Assembly (NCBI GenBank): GCA_934747775.1
Contig: CAKVHA010000005.1
Coordinates: 3,505-67,504 of the forward strand
Source of the DNA: an uncultured Clostridia bacterium
GTDB taxonomy: Bacteria; Bacillota; Clostridia; Christensenellales; UBA1242
Reading direction: 5' to 3'
Length of the DNA stretch: 64,000 bases
Below are positions 18,061 to 43,876 of the stretch, piece after piece (position 1 is the stretch's first letter; every line of letters begins with the position of its first letter). The position numbers and the translations under genes are program-made. Below the pieces are notes generated by a model. The model ran no database searches and was not told the DNA's origin. It worked only from the letters and a program-made list of their open reading frames with translations.

Positions 18061-18136
18061 TGGTGGACGATCAGGGATTCGAACCCTGGACCCACTGATT
18101 AAGAGTCAGTTGCTCTACCAACTGAGCTAATCGTCC
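18061..18136 (-). tRNA. tRNA-Lys (anticodon CUU), CCA encoded
   Basis: Manual cloverleaf: acceptor GGACGAT/ATCGTCC, anticodon stem ACTGA/TCAGT with loop CTCTTAA, T-loop TTCGAAT. Confidence 0.93.
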
Positions 18137-28917: not shown

Positions 28918-29964
28918 ATGTTTGGATTTTTATTGATTTCATCTGTATATATTTGGGTCACTGTGGCTGTGTTGGTAGCAATACTCTTGGCGGTGATTAT
29001 TGGGATTGTTCCTATTGGGATGTGGGTTAGAGCATTGGTTTCAAATTCGTACATTCCTGCGTTTAAACTTGTAGGTATGAAACTTAGGCGAGTTGAAGTT
29101 GGTACACTTGTGGATTGCTACATAAATGCGCGTAAAGCTGGCGTGAAACTTACAATAGATGACCTTGAAACGCACTATCTTGCTGGCGGAAATGTAAAAA
29201 AGGTTGTGGAAGCCCTTATTATTGCAAAGGGTGCGAAAATTGATTTGTCTGTAGAAACAGCAAAGGCAATAGACCTTACAAACCGTGACATTGTGTTGGC
29301 TGTGAAAACTTGTGTAAAACCAATGGTTATTACAACCGACAAAATTTCCGCAATGGCTAAAAACGGAATTGAAGTTATTGTAACAGCAAGAATTACTGTA
29401 AAAACAAATATCAACAAACTAATAGGTTCGGCTGGTGAAGAAACAATTTTGGCTAAAGTTGGTGAAGGAATTGTGTCGGCAGTTGGTAGTGCAAAAAGTC
29501 ACGAAGAGGTTTTGGCAGACCCAGACAAAATTAGTAAAGCAATATTGGCAAAAGGTCTAGACCAAGGCACTGCATATGATATTTTAAGTATAGATATTGC
29601 AGACATAGATGTTGGTGCAAATATTGGTGCGAAAATTCAGGCAGAACGTGCTGCTGCAGATATGAAAATTGCAAACGCAAGAGCCGAAGAAAGACGTGCA
29701 TTGGCAATTGCAAGTGAACACGAAATGAGAGCGATGACGCAAGAAAAACGTGCACAGTTGCTTGATGCTGAAGCCGCTGTTCCAAAAGCAATAAGCCAAG
29801 CGTTTTTAAATGGAAACATTGGCGTTATGGATTACTACAAAATGCAAAACGTTGTTGCTGATACTGCTATGCGTAAATCAATTGGCGGCCCAGCAGCTAG
29901 TGGTGAACCACCTAAAATGATAGAAGGCAAACGTTCTAAAAAAGGCGATGGTGAAGATAAATAA
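28918..29964 (+). CDS. floA: Flotillin-like protein FloA (SPFH domain, YqfA/UPF0365)
   Basis: GMKLRRV...HYLAGGNVKKVVEALIIAKGAKIDL...AIDLTNRDI. Confidence 0.88.
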   Translation: MFGFLLISSVYIWVTVAVLVAILLAVIIGIVPIGMWVRALVSNSYIPAFKLVGMKLRRVEVGTLVDCYINARKAGVKLTIDDLETHYLAGGNVKKVVEALIIAKGAKIDLSVETAKAIDLTNRDIVLAVKTCVKPMVITTDKISAMAKNGIEVIVTARITVKTNINKLIGSAGEETILAKVGEGIVSAVGSAKSHEEVLADPDKISKAILAKGLDQGTAYDILSIDIADIDVGANIGAKIQAERAAADMKIANARAEERRALAIASEHEMRAMTQEKRAQLLDAEAAVPKAISQAFLNGNIGVMDYYKMQNVVADTAMRKSIGGPAASGEPPKMIEGKRSKKGDGEDK

Positions 29965-30467
29965 TGGAAATTATTATAGCCATTGTTTTAGTAGGGTTGT
30001 TTGTTTTTATGCTAACTTTTTTAATACATATATTTGTTAAAAAAGATAAACCAAAAACAGAATCAAAAAATGAAGCGAAACCGCAAGAAAAACCCAAAAC
30101 CACAGAAACAAAACCGCAAGAAAAGAAAGATGATATTCCTGAAATATTAAAAGAAGTTACACAAGGCAACTATATGTATGACATTGCCCACGAAGAAAAA
30201 GATGATGTAACAGTAGACGATATGGACGAAAATCAAAACATATCACAAGATGATATTACAGAAGAAAGCGTTGATGAAGCATATCATAAAATAGAAGCCA
30301 TAGAAGATGATTATGATGATGATAAACTGCTTGATACAAGTTCTATTATTGACGATATAGATGGTAAAAACGATCAACCAAACGAAGATGTTGAAGAGTT
30401 TAAAAGAGTGTCAAGGAAAACAAAAGCACTTTTAATAAGCGATATATTAAAGAGAAAAGGTAAATAA
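29964..30467 (+). CDS. Hypothetical N-terminally anchored, K/E/D-rich protein (in the yqfB position)
   Basis: One TM segment followed by KPKTESKNEAKPQEKPKTTETKPQEKK repeats and an acidic tail. TAATG overlap with floA. Confidence 0.55.
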   Translation: MEIIIAIVLVGLFVFMLTFLIHIFVKKDKPKTESKNEAKPQEKPKTTETKPQEKKDDIPEILKEVTQGNYMYDIAHEEKDDVTVDDMDENQNISQDDITEESVDEAYHKIEAIEDDYDDDKLLDTSSIIDDIDGKNDQPNEDVEEFKRVSRKTKALLISDILKRKGK

Positions 30468-34362: not shown

Positions 34363-34524
34363 AATACATAATATTAAAACCATACAAAATTAAATAATCA
34401 TATAGTTAATAAAACCTTATTAATCCTAGCGATTTTAAGGTTTTTATTTTATTTCGCTCTTGAAATATGAGTTTGTGTGTGATATAATTGAGTCAAATTA
34501 ATTTTTAAAGAGGGAATTAAGATT

Positions 34525-36381
34525 ATGATTAAAAAGAATAATAGCGATTACAAGCCAGCATCAAGCGAAAGCAAAAAGAAATTTCTAAAAACAGTAAAAC
34601 AGGTAGCTTTGGTCACTTGTGTTGGAGCGGCGTTTTTAAATGTTGGATTTATGACTGGTCAACAAATGGCCCGCCAAACATACATTAATTCTGTAACAAG
34701 CCTTAAAGATAGAGAAAAGGCTGTTAATGCTATGCATCTAGATGAAAGGGTTGCGGGATTGGATGATCCAATAACAGTTTTCCCACGTAGTGGAAAACTT
34801 ACTATAAATGTAAGGTTGTCAGAAGATAAACAAACTCCAGAAATTAAATGGCTTTTAAGAAAGAATGTCGAAGAAATTAATAGGGTTTTTAGTTATGTAA
34901 ACCCTAAATATAGCGTAAAACTAGAATACAACCCTAAAGAATTTAAAAAGATGTATTCCATAGATTTATTGGACTCTGATATTGCTCAAAGCAATGTTCT
35001 TGGTATGCAAATTGATGGCGATTGTTATAAAATTGCTTGTAAAGGTGTGGGGATGTATAATTCTGGCGTTGTTTTGGACATAGACAAAATAAAAAGCCTT
35101 AGCAAAAACGATGTCGAATTTAAAAATCAGTTTAGTTACAGCTTTTTGCACGAAGTTTTGGGGCACTCAATTGGTGGAATGAAAGACGCATACGAAATAA
35201 AAAATTTTCCAACCCAAACATTAATGGATGGTGTTGGTAATTATGATGGACCAAATGTTCAACCAGACGATATTAAGGTGTTAATTGCAAAATTTGGAAA
35301 AGGTTCTAATTATGACCAGTGGGTTGAAAGTGCAAACGAGTACTTTAACACCACCGATTGGTATATTTCAAAACTAAAAGAAACTAGGTTCTTAAAAGAG
35401 AATGTTTTGAATGCAATAAAAAAAGAATATAGTTATTTAAGTATGGATTTTTCAGAAGAAAACTTACAAACAACAGATTTGGGCGAAATTTATTATGGTT
35501 TTAATGGGCAAATGATGTATCCTATAGCTAAAACCGATGAAGAACAAGTTGATGTGTATGGTTGTGTTTACAATTCTAAAGATGGTTTTGAAAAAGGTTG
35601 GGCTACATCTTATGACTATTATCCTTTTACAAATAAAATTGATTATTCTGAATGGAGTAGACGAAATTACACAATTGATGGTGTTAGATATATTCCTTCT
35701 GTAGATGAATATATTGTAAAATTAGGCGATAAATACTTTGGTGTTGATGTAGAAATTAACACAAAAGGCGATTATGTGTTTGACAAAGTATATAAGTATG
35801 ATGAAATAGCAAAAGAAGATGTTGATACATATTTAAATATTGCTAAAGAATTAAATGAAAATGCAAAATATACTCCCGATTTGTTCACTAATAAAACAAT
35901 GGCTGTAACTGAGCAATTCTGTAAAAATACTGGCATTACAAAAACGAGTTTGCCAGAATTAAAAGGTAAAACTTTTACAACAGATAGTGAAGATACATAT
36001 ATATTTGATGAAGCAAAGAATACAATTAAGTTTGATGGCAGATTGGCTGGAAGAAGCTGGGCAGAAAAAAGCAACTTGCAATACAAAATTGTAAATGACT
36101 GTGTTTTGTGTTCTAATGGCGATGTGATTGTAAATGATGCAAAAAATGGACTTAGCGCATTAAAAATAAAATTCAATTTAAAAACTGGCAATTTTGATGT
36201 TTTGGGTAGCTCTGCTATGCAAATTACAAAACAACCAGCAGTTGTTTCGAGTTTTAATGCAAAACAAGATAATGAAAACAACGCCGCTGCTAACTTAGAG
36301 AAAAATACGGTTAAAGAATTGTATGACCACGCTAGAAAGGTGGCTCAAAAGGAAAAGAAATTATTTGGTATGATTAAATAA
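34525..36381 (+). CDS. Membrane-anchored protein, paralog A, zincin-like region with atypical HEVLGH spacing
   Basis: N-terminal K-rich tail and TM segment (VALVTCVGAAFLNVGF). FLHEVLGHSIGGMKDAY at nt 35149-35166. Colinear similarity to 37543-39246. Confidence 0.6.
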   Translation: MIKKNNSDYKPASSESKKKFLKTVKQVALVTCVGAAFLNVGFMTGQQMARQTYINSVTSLKDREKAVNAMHLDERVAGLDDPITVFPRSGKLTINVRLSEDKQTPEIKWLLRKNVEEINRVFSYVNPKYSVKLEYNPKEFKKMYSIDLLDSDIAQSNVLGMQIDGDCYKIACKGVGMYNSGVVLDIDKIKSLSKNDVEFKNQFSYSFLHEVLGHSIGGMKDAYEIKNFPTQTLMDGVGNYDGPNVQPDDIKVLIAKFGKGSNYDQWVESANEYFNTTDWYISKLKETRFLKENVLNAIKKEYSYLSMDFSEENLQTTDLGEIYYGFNGQMMYPIAKTDEEQVDVYGCVYNSKDGFEKGWATSYDYYPFTNKIDYSEWSRRNYTIDGVRYIPSVDEYIVKLGDKYFGVDVEINTKGDYVFDKVYKYDEIAKEDVDTYLNIAKELNENAKYTPDLFTNKTMAVTEQFCKNTGITKTSLPELKGKTFTTDSEDTYIFDEAKNTIKFDGRLAGRSWAEKSNLQYKIVNDCVLCSNGDVIVNDAKNGLSALKIKFNLKTGNFDVLGSSAMQITKQPAVVSSFNAKQDNENNAAANLEKNTVKELYDHARKVAQKEKKLFGMIK

Positions 36382-36505
36382 TTTTAAAAAGGTTAGATTT
36401 TTTAAGGTCTAATCTTTTTTTGTTAAAACCTTTTAAATTGGCTATAATTGTTGATTTATAACGCAAAAAATGGTATAATAATTTTATAGATACAAAGGGG
36501 AAAAT

Positions 36506-37528
36506 ATGGGATTATTTTTTAACAGAAACAAACAAAAACAATTTAGTGAAGATGAAATTAGAAGAATGTCACCAGCGGAAATAAGCGACAATGTGTTTAA
36601 ATATGGTGCTACAGAGCCTTTTTTAAACGAAGTAAGATATAGACTTAAAAATGGATATTGCAAACCAACCGATTTTAACGAATATTACAGAGATTTTGCA
36701 TTTGATAAAGAAACAGTAATTAGTGCTTGCTATGCCGGTTGTGATGTTTCATATCGTGCTTTGCCAGAAAATTTAAAAGAAGACTATGATGTTGCTCTTG
36801 CGGCTATGCACGCTCGCGGCACTGGATATAACGAACTTTTGCCGCAGTTTAAAGGTGATAGAAAGATTGCTCTTGCTGCCATAAATAGGGATCCCGAACA
36901 ACTAAGAGATATGCCCATAGGTTTAAGAAAAGATAAACTTGTTGTTAGTGAAGCAATTTCTAAAAATCCGTCGACCTTTGCCTATGCTGCCAATGAGCTT
37001 AAAGAAAACAAAGGTTTTGTTATGGAAGCTATGTCAAAAGTTAATCCTGTTGTTTTAACATATGCAGCTGACGATATTAAAAACAGCAAAGACTGTGCGA
37101 TTTTTGCAGTGTCTAGATTGGGCGAGCGTGGTTTAGCTTGCATTGGCGATAATTTTAAAGAAGACCTTAATATGCACTTGCTTGCAAAATTTAGTGAAGT
37201 TGCAACAGACGGTGGCGATATTAGAGAAGCCTTTTTGCATATGTGCGACTTGTATGATATGCGCGGCGACTTGGAGTATGGTGCTATGACCGATTTGATT
37301 AAATACAATGCCCAGTTGCGTACTAAAAGCGTTTTGGAAAACAAAAATGAAGGACTAAACGAAATTCCACGATTTATGGTTTTAAATATTGCAAAAGAGT
37401 TTGCTGGCGACAACTTAAACATTCTTGCCGATGCAAGACAAAATCAAATAGAAAACCCTAATTATGTAAACGAAAGACGCGAAGTTTATATCCAAGAAAA
37501 ACAACAACAGCGTGACTACAAGCATTAA
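36506..37528 (+). CDS. DUF4116-repeat protein
   Basis: Tandem repeats of about 30 aa: LPENLKEDYDVALAAM, FKGDRKIALAAINRDPEQL, LRKDKLVVSEAISKNPSTFAYA, LKENKGFVMEAMSKVNPVVLTYA, IKNSKDCAIFAV. Confidence 0.6.
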   Translation: MGLFFNRNKQKQFSEDEIRRMSPAEISDNVFKYGATEPFLNEVRYRLKNGYCKPTDFNEYYRDFAFDKETVISACYAGCDVSYRALPENLKEDYDVALAAMHARGTGYNELLPQFKGDRKIALAAINRDPEQLRDMPIGLRKDKLVVSEAISKNPSTFAYAANELKENKGFVMEAMSKVNPVVLTYAADDIKNSKDCAIFAVSRLGERGLACIGDNFKEDLNMHLLAKFSEVATDGGDIREAFLHMCDLYDMRGDLEYGAMTDLIKYNAQLRTKSVLENKNEGLNEIPRFMVLNIAKEFAGDNLNILADARQNQIENPNYVNERREVYIQEKQQQRDYKH

Positions 37529-37542
37529 TTTGGAGATATAAA

Positions 37543-39246
37543 ATGATTAAAAACAAAGATAAAACTGTAAAAATAGCAAGTAGAGAATCTAAACATAAGT
37601 TTTTAAAAGGTCTAGGCATTGGGCTAGCTTCTCTTGCTGCGGTTACGGCAACTGCTGGAACAATTGGTGCATTAAAGTTTCGTAGTTTTTCCAACGACCT
37701 TGCACCGATAAGGGGTGTAAACGAACGCATAAATGAAAACGGCTTGGATAATGAAGTCACTTGGATAAATGCCCAGGCTCGCGTGGTTTTTCCTAAAAAC
37801 GGACAATTTCAAATTAATGTTAAAATTGATGAAAAATATCTAAACGACCAAACAAAAAGGGCATTGGAAGATACTATTCACGATTACAATGTGGCGTTAA
37901 AGAGTATAAAAAACAATGCTAAAAATGACTATAGTTTAAAATTGGAATATGATTCAAAAAAGTTTACAAGCTTGTACAGTTTTGATTTGAAAGATGACAA
38001 TCTTGACAACAATATTTTAGGTTTGTATTGCCCAAAACTAATTCTTCCAACGGTTAATGGTTTTGGAACATATAAGTCGGAAATATCAGTAGATATGAAT
38101 AAAATTACATCTGTCGACACTTATTATAGTACGCTTAAAGATGTCGTGATGCACGAGTTATCACACGGCATACTTGGTATGGGTGACGCCTACAATATAG
38201 TTGATTTTCCGTTTGAAACAATTATGTTGTCTAATGATGTTGAACCGATTTTGTCTGACCTTGATATGAAAAACTTGGCAATAAAATATGGTGATGGCAC
38301 TTATAATTCGGACTGGTATAAAGGCACTACTTGGTATCAAAGTATGATTGACGACTCGCAGTATATTAAAGAAAATGCTTTCGATAAAATATCCGAAGTA
38401 TATTCATATGGCGAAACATTAGATAAGTCCGATTTTTCACACGAGTACGAAAATTTTGGTTTTTTTGGAAAAAACTACAATAGGTTGAAAGATATAGGTG
38501 GAATAAACACATGCGCATATGGGGTTGAGTATAGAAATATAAAAAAAAATAAACTTAATGCATATTCCGCAACAGCAACTCCTTTTGAAAACACTGCAAC
38601 AGAGCACGCTTCGTCATCTGATGCATATGAAATAGGCGATATGATGTTTTCAGCAAAAGATAGTGGATTTTACGTGAAACAGGGAAACACTGTGTATTCC
38701 GCAAAAGTTTCATATGATAATGGCAAAAAGGGTGTTTTTGTAAAACCTATTGGCGATATACTTTCAAAACAAGATTGTGCAAAAGTGGTAAGTAAATGGC
38801 ATAATATGGTTAATGATGTCAAGAATAATCCAAATTATTTTGGTGATATGTACTCAAATGAAGTAAATAAGCAGTTTGTTACAAAAGATTTTGGAATGCG
38901 TGAAAATTTGCCAACTATTCAACATAATGTTATTAAAACAAGATATTTGGGAATGTATGAATTTGATGGCAATAATTGTTTTTGGAAAGCCGAGGATGGT
39001 GTATTAAATAGTGAAATGAAATACAAAGAGTACAACGATTTGGTGTTTTTATCAAATGGTGATGTTCTTGCAAACTCGTCTAATGGAATGGTTGCGTTTA
39101 AGTTTGGTTTTGATAATAAAAACTGTAATGCAGTTGTTAACGATTATTCTGTAAGTGAAAATTTCAACACAAAAACCACACAAACAAGTATCAACTATAG
39201 CGGTAGTTATAGTGGCTATCAAAATATGGGTGGCAGAAGTAAATAA
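37543..39246 (+). CDS. Membrane-anchored putative zinc metalloprotease, paralog B (HExxH)
   Basis: N-terminal tail and TM segment (LGIGLASLAAVTATAGTIGAL). VMHELSHGILGMGDAY (HELSH at nt 38152-38166), snapalysin-like apart from one extra residue. Confidence 0.6.
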   Translation: MIKNKDKTVKIASRESKHKFLKGLGIGLASLAAVTATAGTIGALKFRSFSNDLAPIRGVNERINENGLDNEVTWINAQARVVFPKNGQFQINVKIDEKYLNDQTKRALEDTIHDYNVALKSIKNNAKNDYSLKLEYDSKKFTSLYSFDLKDDNLDNNILGLYCPKLILPTVNGFGTYKSEISVDMNKITSVDTYYSTLKDVVMHELSHGILGMGDAYNIVDFPFETIMLSNDVEPILSDLDMKNLAIKYGDGTYNSDWYKGTTWYQSMIDDSQYIKENAFDKISEVYSYGETLDKSDFSHEYENFGFFGKNYNRLKDIGGINTCAYGVEYRNIKKNKLNAYSATATPFENTATEHASSSDAYEIGDMMFSAKDSGFYVKQGNTVYSAKVSYDNGKKGVFVKPIGDILSKQDCAKVVSKWHNMVNDVKNNPNYFGDMYSNEVNKQFVTKDFGMRENLPTIQHNVIKTRYLGMYEFDGNNCFWKAEDGVLNSEMKYKEYNDLVFLSNGDVLANSSNGMVAFKFGFDNKNCNAVVNDYSVSENFNTKTTQTSINYSGSYSGYQNMGGRSK

Positions 39247-39251
39247 TAAAC

Positions 39252-39290
39252 AAAAAAGACTGGTTTTACAATCGGTCTTTTTTGTTTTTG
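39252..39290 (+). terminator. Rho-independent terminator
   Basis: Hairpin aagactg/cggtctt followed by a T-run. Confidence 0.65.
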
Positions 39291-42200: not shown

Positions 42201-42722
42201 ATGAATTATAGTTTTAGTTATAAATATTTAAAAATAAAAAATGGTAAAGAAAATTTTATTATTGAGTGTAGCTATGATACAATGCTTGGTAAAAAAGTAT
42301 ATGCTGCAAAAACAAATTTGTTGTTTAAAGATGAGTTTGGAGATTGGGGGCATGCTTGTGGCGTTGGTAAAAGTGAAGAAGAAGCAGTTAATGGTTGCTG
42401 TAATGAAATTAATGAATACATTAACACTAATTTTACATACGAACAAATTAAAAACTGCCAAGATGATGATTTGTTGAAGAAAATAGTCATAGAAAAACAC
42501 AATAAGCCTATTGAGATTTTCTACAAACAAGAGAACAACAATGTTGATTGTTTTTGTAAAGATAAAACTGATCTTAAAACAGTGTTATATGCTTGTAAAA
42601 TGGTTGGAATTGAAGATAACACGAAGACTACTTTAACACATATAACAGAAGATGAGAAAAAAGATGTTATTTTTGATACGCTTACACGGAAATATAACAA
42701 CGATAATGTTAGCATAAAGTGA
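42201..42722 (+). CDS. Hypothetical protein (173 aa, AT-rich, no recognised family)
   Basis: AAGGA RBS and ATG. Several antisense or shadow ORFs overlap it. Confidence 0.5.
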   Translation: MNYSFSYKYLKIKNGKENFIIECSYDTMLGKKVYAAKTNLLFKDEFGDWGHACGVGKSEEEAVNGCCNEINEYINTNFTYEQIKNCQDDDLLKKIVIEKHNKPIEIFYKQENNNVDCFCKDKTDLKTVLYACKMVGIEDNTKTTLTHITEDEKKDVIFDTLTRKYNNDNVSIK

Positions 42723-42751
42723 ACCCTATAATAGAAGAATCTACAAAATAA

Positions 42752-42853
42752 AAATGGACAGTTGAAGGGTCTACAGAAACAACAAATGGTGTATGGGAAC
42801 TTGTTGTTGATCCTGTAAAAAAGGTTATTGTTCATTTCTTGTTTAGAACATAA
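42752..42853 (+). pseudogene. Start-less 3' remnant of a gene (33 codons and a stop)
   Basis: Stop-free stretch KWTVEGSTETTNGVWELVVDPVKKVIVHFLFRT* with no RBS or in-frame start. A TAA lies immediately upstream in frame. Confidence 0.4.
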
Positions 42854-42867
42854 ACTTGGAGAGTACT

Positions 42868-43371
42868 ATGAGCGAGCAATTTCATGATTATAAGTTTAAA
42901 GTTAAAGAGTTGTCCAAAACAGATTCGCTTCTTGAGTATCATAAAATAAAGGTATGTTGTAGAAAATACGACAATAATGAAGCTTGTATTTATTCAAACA
43001 ACGGCGGTGGAGACTATTCTTTATATTTGCAAGATAGATTTTTTAATTTTACTATAGATAATGAAACAAAAAGAGTATCAGCATTTGATGGAGATATAGT
43101 TTGTAGTCAACTAAAGCCAGTAAAGTTGCAATTGCCTACAACAGTAAAAGATGTTATTCTTAGTGTAGATACACAAGATAATTTGGAAAAAGGTTGTGGC
43201 GGATATATAAAGTTTAATACATCTAAAATTTTTTATGATAAAAAGAATAAGATTTTACAAATTGGCGATATTAATCCTAAAGATATAACATATAAATTTT
43301 TCGATAACGGATATACACAAATAAAAAATGATTCTTTGAGCGGGTTAATGTTTACGGAAATGGATATGTAG
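42868..43371 (+). CDS. Hypothetical protein (167 aa)
   Basis: GGAGAG RBS and ATG at 42868, 14 nt after the remnant's stop. Confidence 0.55.
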   Translation: MSEQFHDYKFKVKELSKTDSLLEYHKIKVCCRKYDNNEACIYSNNGGGDYSLYLQDRFFNFTIDNETKRVSAFDGDIVCSQLKPVKLQLPTTVKDVILSVDTQDNLEKGCGGYIKFNTSKIFYDKKNKILQIGDINPKDITYKFFDNGYTQIKNDSLSGLMFTEMDM

Positions 43372-43407
43372 AAAAAAATCACGAATTTAATTTCGTGATT
43401 TTTTTTG
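43372..43407. terminator. Bidirectional terminator between convergent genes
   Basis: A7, hairpin atcacgaa-tttaat-ttcgtgat, T8. Confidence 0.85.
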
Positions 43408-43429
43408 TTATAAAATATTTTTATATTAC

Positions 43430-43876
43430 CTATTTGCATGGTGCCATATCGTTAGGATCTGGAACATGTTCGCGTGATATTTGTTTGTAATAACCTTTGC
43501 TGATTGCTTCAATGCCGTTTTTGCCTAGGTTAAATTCAACACCATAGCCTGAATCACCATTTGCAGTGTAGTTTAGAGTAAGTGGTTTTTCGTGATTGAT
43601 ATATTTAATGTTTTTTATACTGCTATAGCATTCTAAAATTCTATCTGGTGCGATATTAATAACAATACCTTCTTCAAACAAATTAACAGCTGTAGGTGCT
43701 TTCATAAAGTGTTTTTGTGGGCTGTACACAACTGGTAAAGCATAAGTAAAGTTAGGGTCGTCTGGCATAACCAAAACAGCATAATCATCGTCCAAAATAT
43801 TTCTTAGGTTTTTATTGTAGTTTTTGCCATATTCTACAATTTTTTCAATTTTATCTATTTTTTTATCTTTTTTCAT
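43430..43876 (-). CDS. Hypothetical protein (148 aa)
   Basis: ORF starting 4 nt downstream of the TSCPD gene stop. No family recognised. Confidence 0.55.
   Translation of the reverse strand: MKKDKKIDKIEKIVEYGKNYNKNLRNILDDDYAVLVMPDDPNFTYALPVVYSPQKHFMKAPTAVNLFEEGIVINIAPDRILECYSSIKNIKYINHEKPLTLNYTANGDSGYGVEFNLGKNGIEAISKGYYKQISREHVPDPNDMAPCK

Follow-up and report, generated by a model that had tools for sequence, protein, structure and literature searches.

Genes and transcription units at the recO-ppdK locus

The subject of this analysis is a group of three genes in a 64,000-nucleotide (nt) stretch of contig CAKVHA010000005.1, here called the window, from an uncultured, spore-forming, low-GC gut Firmicute in which sporulation genes are present. 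Two paralogs, A and B, flank a gene for a DUF4116 protein, for which we use the shorthand D. On balance we think it probable that A and B are anciently diverged, N-terminally membrane-anchored zinc metallopeptidases of metzincin fold, A standing alone and B paired with the DUF4116 protein. The three genes and the two zinc sites are located as follows.

34525..36381, + strand, paralog A, an open reading frame (ORF) of 618 residues
35149..35226, + strand, zinc-site motif of A by alignment, HEVLGHSIGGMKDAY ... TLM, residues 209-234
36506..37528, + strand, DUF4116-repeat protein D, 340 residues, from the ORF and Pfam
37543..39246, + strand, paralog B, an ORF of 567 residues
38152..38226, + strand, zinc-site motif of B by alignment, HELSHGILGMGDAY ... 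TIM, residues 204-228

A preliminary description of this DNA had called the ORFs at 34525-36381 and 37543-39246 colinear paralogs by eye, and a near full-length alignment of A and B with 28% identity (E=1e-44) bears this out, with all four of the segment pairs quoted there found in it. Because A groups with another relative, P0003 (bootstrap 100), and not with B, the duplication that separates the two is old.

The signals for transcription around the genes, all on the same strand, are listed next.

34411..34444, + strand, likely terminator after recO, an AT-rich hairpin with a U-tract (dG -9.3 kcal/mol, z -2.6)
34460..34488, + strand, sigma-70-like promoter 5' of A, TTGAAA-17-TATAAT with an extended -10 TG (consensus match, 11/12)
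36386..36419, + strand, likely intrinsic terminator, a hairpin with a U-tract directly 3' of the A stop codon (dG -12.4, z -4.8)
36420..36479, + strand, two overlapping promoter-like sites 5' of the DUF4116 gene (consensus matches only, 10/12 each)
39248..39287, + strand, strong hairpin with a U-tract after B, the terminator of the DUF4116-B operon (dG -19.1, z -6.5; also inverted repeat I4)

The hairpins after recO, A and B, together with the promoter-like sites and a 14-nt D-B spacer that contains GGAG and no hairpin, make A look like a monocistronic gene and D-B look like a two-gene operon, as judged from sequence signals. The site upstream of A has the best score of the region, as a consensus match only, and those upstream of D read TTGTTA-17-TATAAT and TTGATT-17-TATAAT, the latter with TG. 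None of 200 shuffles folded as well as the hairpin after A; the hairpin after recO was the weakest of the three when folding was compared with shuffles, and it likely isolates A from the upstream operon. A consensus terminator scan missed these hairpins because their stems are AT-rich and the scan demands three G-C pairs. No leader or riboswitch was found in an Rfam scan of the intergenic regions. A sub-threshold Rfam match to Thr_leader (window 39164-39286, 27.5 bits against a gathering cut-off of 55) overlaps the terminator hairpin of B and is almost certainly due to chance, driven by the hairpin and U-tract.

Architecture of the paralogs and their conserved tail

Protein A starts with a cytoplasmic tail (residues 1-23) and a transmembrane (TM) anchor (about 24-45), followed by a metzincin-like catalytic domain (about 83-255), a helical linker, a beta-rich C-terminal region and an extra basic C-terminal helix. 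The layout of B is a tail (1-22), a TM helix (about 23-45), a metzincin catalytic domain (about 79-250), a long helix (263-287) and a beta-rich C-terminal region (about 307-538) without a confident structural match. Both tails are Lys-rich, with 8 K+R against 2 D+E in each paralog, and each protein has a single hydrophobic stretch (KD19 1.77 at residue 27 in A and 1.65 at residue 26 in B), in agreement with the basic tail and one TM segment described earlier for both. The extracytoplasmic body that had been proposed is consistent with a positive-inside tail, and also with the short-form relatives introduced below, which carry an N-terminal hydrophobic signal of lipoprotein type (as in P0015) or of another kind. 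From hydropathy and charge we infer that A and B are oriented N-in/C-out, with the body outside.

No segment is better conserved between A and B than the cytoplasmic tail of 23 residues (consensus MIKxxxxxxKxASxESKxKFLK), where identity is 57%, compared with 32% in the catalytic domain. The DNA of the two tails differs at synonymous sites, including switches of Ser codon family, which rules out gene conversion as the source of the similarity; because A and B use different Ser codon families, it is the tail peptide itself that is constrained. As a separate observation made by eye, B (window 37543-37590) and its positional counterpart P0010 (L007, 292-339) are nearly identical in DNA over about the first 50 nt of the ORF and only 25-35% identical overall as proteins, a pattern in which the cytoplasmic tail or 5' end is conserved and the ectodomain attached to it evolves fast.

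A small family with a predicted matrixin-like fold

Direct sequence searches with A and B gave no match in Pfam, NCBIfam or the PDB. Word-indexed searches of 5.8 billion clusters returned near-identical copies, among them an exact copy of A (P0002), and otherwise only P0003, the closest relative, with 39% identity to A. The family becomes visible only by exhaustive profile search, since it was HMMER on 1.84 billion representatives that found 38 relatives, of which 13 (including A) are full length and are called long forms here, and the other 25 are shorter and match only around the motif. Pairwise identity among the 13 long forms is 20-42%. Pattern scans of GTDB representative genomes, of JGI metagenomes and of IMG/VR gave no relatives. 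A and B are thus two anciently diverged members of a small family that is without a Pfam or NCBIfam model, very rare and new.

Where the preliminary description had seen a zincin-like motif and recognised no protease family beyond it, the sequence profile of the family and the predicted fold of B bear out the zincin reading and make it more specific: they support a matrixin-like metzincin fold with Asp as the third ligand. The canonical signature HExxHxxGxxDxY is found in 21 of 36 aligned members, the long-form P0007 among them; these have the exact metzincin MA(M) spacing HExxHxxGxxH/D, which is found in neither A nor B. The Met-turn, T-[ILVM]-M with Met 13 residues after the Asp, is present in A (M234), in B (M228) and in nearly all relatives, P0013 with TLL being the exception, and is followed in the family alignment by a D[IV]xxLxxxY helix that resembles the C-helix of MMPs. 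Eight of the 36 members match Pfam Peptidase_M10 (PF00413): only P0029, a distant relative, passes its gathering threshold (25.8 bits against 24), P0022 reaches 22.4 bits, and A and B themselves, without a match to this model at E<=1, fall outside Pfam membership. The best match of the family profile in the PDB is matrilysin (E=0.027), in an alignment that runs from the zinc motif to the C-helix. In hhalign comparisons the catalytic-domain profile matched MMP-7 with 94.7% and MMP-12 with 91.9% probability; of the two sequences used, the C-terminal part of MMP-7 agrees with the matrilysin sequence of the PDB search.

The structural evidence comes from an AlphaFold2 model of B, made on the 36-sequence alignment (pLDDT 86.4, pTM 0.79), and the fold result by model covers B; an earlier run on a 4-sequence alignment had given a pLDDT of 44 and an unusable catalytic domain. 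Strands and helices follow the metzincin order in residues 79-250 of the model, with the twisted five-stranded sheet and helices A, B (the active-site helix, 194-210) and C that define the MA(M) fold. Foldseek matched the model to the MMP-2 catalytic domain (probability 0.99, TM-score 0.57 on the target) and to the astacin HCE-1 (probability 0.98) in the PDB, and in BFVD to a Lactobacillus phage Zn-protease (E=8e-6) and to granulovirus MMPs (E~1e-5), the viral MMPs spanning 8e-6 to 6e-5.

The likeness to matrixins (M10) therefore extends from the best fold match and the best profile matches to the alignment of the active-site helix, Gly turn and Met-turn, to the family D-I/V-x-x-L-x-x-x-Y segment, which corresponds to 'DDIxGIQxLY' of MMPs, and to the few distant members that reach or approach the Pfam M10 threshold. 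A and B differ from matrixins in that their third ligand is Asp and not His, their motifs carry insertions, a PRCGxPD-like segment (the cysteine-switch propeptide) is absent on inspection, the C-terminal region is unrelated and not hemopexin, and the TM anchor is N-terminal, whereas MMPs are secreted or C-terminally anchored. Among Asp-zincins, snapalysin (M7) has the motif HExxHxxGxxD, with Met about ten residues after the Asp (PMC3890501). Canonical relatives of A and B are similar, with HExxHxxGxxD-x-Y and Met about 13 residues later; the family proteins have no Pfam M7 match, are 4-5 times larger, membrane-anchored and multi-domain, and A and B deviate in motif spacing.

The DUF4116 protein and its linkage to the metzincin

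The protein encoded between the paralogs is a bona fide DUF4116 member (PF13475, a family of repeated units of about 49 residues; E=1.2e-17, 63.7 bits with the cut-off at 24.9, three stretches) and has neither a signal nor a TM segment (maximum KD19 0.89), so that the cytoplasmic-looking repeat protein of the preliminary description is confirmed. It consists of an N-terminal domain of about 80 residues, DUF4116 repeats and a C-terminal extension, and is the only one of the three proteins with a PHROG match (phrog_31839, a PHROG without assigned function, E=1e-13). The DUF4116 family has been modelled as an alpha-solenoid (PMC8078820).

The complete trio was seen only in this species, in the window and in L002-L004; human-gut metagenome contigs, with a Hadza sample among their sources, carry the same trio in the same context with 96-100% identity. 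Other occupants of the position after recO are as follows.

L005: a metzincin alone, then ppdK
L011: a D-like gene (408 residues), a 16-nt gap, then a metzincin
L012/L013: a D-like gene (405 residues), a 23-nt gap, a metzincin, then ppdK
L007: a metzincin, a DUF4116 gene on the opposite strand, then ppdK
L010: a 667-residue lipoprotein-like ORF, then a metzincin

The L010 ORF (3779-5782) has a lipoprotein-type signal (…LFASCGKKE) and no Pfam match, and holds the position of A between recO and the metzincin.

Hence DUF4116 adjoins the metzincin in three further lineages at this locus, and lies immediately upstream of it in two. Identity to D is 26-30% (E about 1e-30) for the D-like proteins of L011 and L012, which, like D, add the conserved N-terminal domain and a C-terminal extension to what other DUF4116 proteins have; their Pfam scores are 38.6 and 26.0 bits against the same cut-off, and the L007 protein, which is without that N-terminal domain, scores 154.7 bits. 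Co-transcription of D with B, proposed earlier, is consistent with the hairpin-free 14-nt gap and with the same gene order with similarly short gaps in two other lineages. The suggestion that the trio forms one module did not hold up as stated: A has a transcription unit to itself and comes from an old, different branch of the family, and the genes do not always occur together, as a metzincin without an adjacent DUF4116 gene is present in L005 and in the unrelated contexts of L001 (next to hrcA), L008 and L015 (next to recR), L001 and L008 being short contigs. Since a metzincin can also stand by itself elsewhere, the trio as such is species-specific, and what recurs is DUF4116 with one metzincin.

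The linkage is suggestive of function, and general synteny of the region confounds it. It is quite possible, though we lean tentatively against it, that there is no functional module and that the DUF4116 and metzincin genes are unrelated neighbours kept together by the recO-ppdK synteny. All flanking genes are syntenic too, L005 has a metzincin between recO and ppdK without DUF4116, L015 and the two short contigs also have it without DUF4116 next to it, and the DUF4116 gene of L007 lies on the opposite strand, its product lacking the N-terminal domain of the window copy. Against such a passive association, tight same-strand spacing (14, 16 and 23 nt) is kept in three lineages despite only 26-31% identity of both proteins, and the sole strongly constrained segment outside the catalytic site is the cytoplasmic tail, the only part that a cytoplasmic protein could reach.

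The finding that PPDK is 94-96% identical beside metzincins at 25-30% raised the idea of a strain-level hypervariable island between near-identical flanks. This was ruled out, as the other flanks of the more distant relatives are far more diverged from the window (RecO 64-70%, YqfD 45-53% and YabP 42-46% identity, with Era at 84-90%); the PPDK value arises because PPDK is very conserved, and the loci belong to different species.

The variant zinc-site motif

HExxH had been reported earlier for both paralogs. This stands for B, where the motif is intact (HELSH at residue 204), and fails for A, which has HEVLGH at residue 209, a form of HExxGH (HExxxH). The site of A is HEVLGHSIGGMKD, with a His-His distance of 5 and a His-Asp distance of 7, and that of B is HELSHGILGMGD, with distances of 4 and 7, so that the Asp lies 7 and not 6 residues after the second His in B as well; the Met of A follows its Asp by 13. 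Compared with canonical members, the HExxGH proteins carry two single-residue insertions, the first located between the Glu and the second His, the second in the stretch from that His to the Asp. B shares only the latter insertion, and P0007 is fully canonical. Because the Asp-Met spacing is constant at 13, the indels are confined to the motif. The pattern HE[IV]xGHG....DAY is found in 11 of the 13 long forms, A included, and the HExxGH type is also found in P0015.

P0015 (430 residues; L015 5001-6293, NCBI GCA_045598895.1, JAZRUZ010000003.1, with two tRNAs just upstream) is a short form that combines a lipoprotein-type signal (…ITASAAC) with HEWLGH, and therefore the insertion is not restricted to TM-anchored long forms.

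H, E, H, D and Y account for five of only 18 invariant columns across the long forms, and near-invariance extends to the Gly preceding the second His and to the Met. Invariance of the five residues at 20-42% identity argues for a functional metal site and not a decayed one, and because the catalytic residues are invariant we infer that A and B are active, outward-facing, N-terminally anchored metallopeptidases.

An unlikely alternative is that the insertions abolished catalysis and that A and B are pseudo-proteases, membrane-anchored binding or adhesion proteins on a metzincin scaffold. It is true that the indels hit precisely the portion of the metzincin motif with the strictest spacing, A and B score below all Pfam and NCBIfam protease models, and inactive members exist, since P0033 has lost the catalytic Glu (HVMGH). 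However, functionless residues would be expected to decay, and the 12 sequences of HExxGH type, at 20-40% overall identity, all keep H, E, H, D and Y and nearly always the Met. Moreover, HExxxH is catalytically competent elsewhere: in DPP III (HELLGH) and in TldD it binds the catalytic metal, and the extra residue is accommodated there by a distorted turn of the helix (PMC3268031, PMC5810440), and the conserved Gly before the second His in the family is as in the HEXXGH of DPP III. We found no mention of HEXXGH together with metzincins in the literature searched.

The resemblance to DPP III (M49) and TldD (M103) is confined to this hexapeptide, shared by A and 11 relatives. Their folds are a gluzincin-like two-lobe structure (DPP III) and a beta-funnel (TldD), and their third ligand is Glu or Cys. 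The PDB profile match to DPP III (E=0.39, 25 residues, helix only) is not significant, and of the M49 hallmarks, HEXXGH with EExx(A)E in a two-lobe fold, the hexapeptide alone is common to both. The likeness of the zinc sites is thus at most convergent.

Genomic setting

The gene order in the window is nfeD-floA-yabP-yqfD-ybeY-era-recO, then A-D-B, then ppdK. Since the yabP-like and yqfD genes lie 2.5 kb upstream and the host lineage has sporulation genes, the proteins could be imagined to form a sporulation or germination protease that works with yabP/yqfC-yqfD and processes spore-envelope proteins. We regard this as very improbable: the housekeeping genes ybeY, era and recO intervene, the order yqfC/D-ybeY-era-recO is a widely conserved arrangement in any case, sigma-70-like promoter matches and terminators of their own flank A and the DUF4116-B operon, and the homologs in L001, L008 and L015 are found in unrelated contexts. 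That the genes are mobile or phage-derived cargo (a prophage protease, defence or toxin cassette) inserted between recO and ppdK can scarcely be credited, for although the best viral-library fold matches are phage and granulovirus metalloproteases, D matches a PHROG and the locus content varies between relatives, IMG/VR gave no relatives, PADLOC defence models matched none of A, D and B, no flanking repeats or integrase were found at the locus, its GC content (0.305-0.342) is inside the range of the window (0.26-0.39), and family members occupy the locus in all relatives examined, which indicates vertical descent.

Several other features of the window were recorded. Directly after nfeD-floA, a 167-residue protein (29964-30467) begins with a TM segment and has a long acidic tail of low complexity; its Pfam matches are weak and non-specific, and its identity to the counterparts in L005 and L012 is no more than 46-54%. 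Three small ORFs 3' of ppdK (42201-43876; 173 and 171 residues on the + strand, 148 residues on the - strand) have no significant Pfam match and are kept in the near-identical contig L002. Adjacent genes for tRNA-Ile(GAT) and tRNA-Ala(TGC) lie at 1480-1692 on the - strand, a pair typical of rRNA spacers, and the window gave no rRNA match in Rfam; a single, isolated tRNA-Lys(CTT) is at 18061-18136 on the - strand.

A model for the anchored metzincins and its implications

In the model that we favour, the Lys-rich 23-residue tail would stay in the cytoplasm, as its charge suggests, and one TM helix would anchor the protein N-in/C-out, as hydropathy suggests, placing on the outer side of the membrane an MMP-like catalytic domain, whose fold is supported by structure prediction and fold searching. 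By alignment to MMPs, zinc would be bound by both His residues of HExx(x)H together with the Asp in the conserved GDAY, with the Glu as general base and the Met-turn underneath. The extra residue of HExxGH might be absorbed by a local distortion of the helix, by analogy with DPP III and TldD, and the fast-evolving, beta-rich C-terminal region would pick the substrate. A would be transcribed alone and B co-transcribed with the cytoplasmic DUF4116 alpha-solenoid, and the DUF4116 protein may act on the conserved tail to affect insertion, localisation or activity, with the tail as its docking site.

This arrangement has a parallel in MT-MMPs and ADAMs, which also have a metzincin catalytic domain at the outer membrane face and a short cytoplasmic tail, and their tails bind cytoplasmic regulators. 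MT-MMPs and ADAMs are type I proteins with a C-terminal TM segment and a cleaved signal, whereas A and B are N-terminally anchored (type II), and homology to A and B is found in the catalytic core only.

Several points weigh against our reading of A and B. The topology is based on simple hydropathy and charge, and a possible signal-peptidase site between ATA and G in B could mean release of the protein instead of anchoring. The M10 link is transitive and its sequence part depends on marginal E-values; A and B themselves match no Pfam or NCBIfam protease model, and neither has strict metzincin spacing (HExxxH in A, and a His-Asp distance of 7 against 6 in both). Moreover, the DUF4116 link could be inherited synteny, since the whole yabP-yqfD-ybeY-era-recO ... 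ppdK block is syntenic, and L005 has a metzincin at the recO-ppdK locus without DUF4116.

A bolder version, which we consider rather improbable, is that these proteins are the first metzincin lineage with a catalytic DPP III/TldD-like HExxGH, and that the tail docks DUF4116 to give a surface protease controlled from the inside out. If this were true, DUF4116 would gain its first functional assignment. The metzincin zinc motif is treated as a signature of fixed spacing and is widely used in protease annotation; if the catalytic residues are kept despite the insertions, the metzincin site would be more plastic than assumed, and motif-based searches would miss such insertion-bearing proteins, which here form a family without a Pfam or NCBIfam model. 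Because the proteins would be surface-exposed and are fast-evolving in a human-gut lineage, roles in host or phage interactions are plausible, and the recurring DUF4116 operon is a concrete lead on a widespread domain of unknown function of bacteria, protists and giant viruses.

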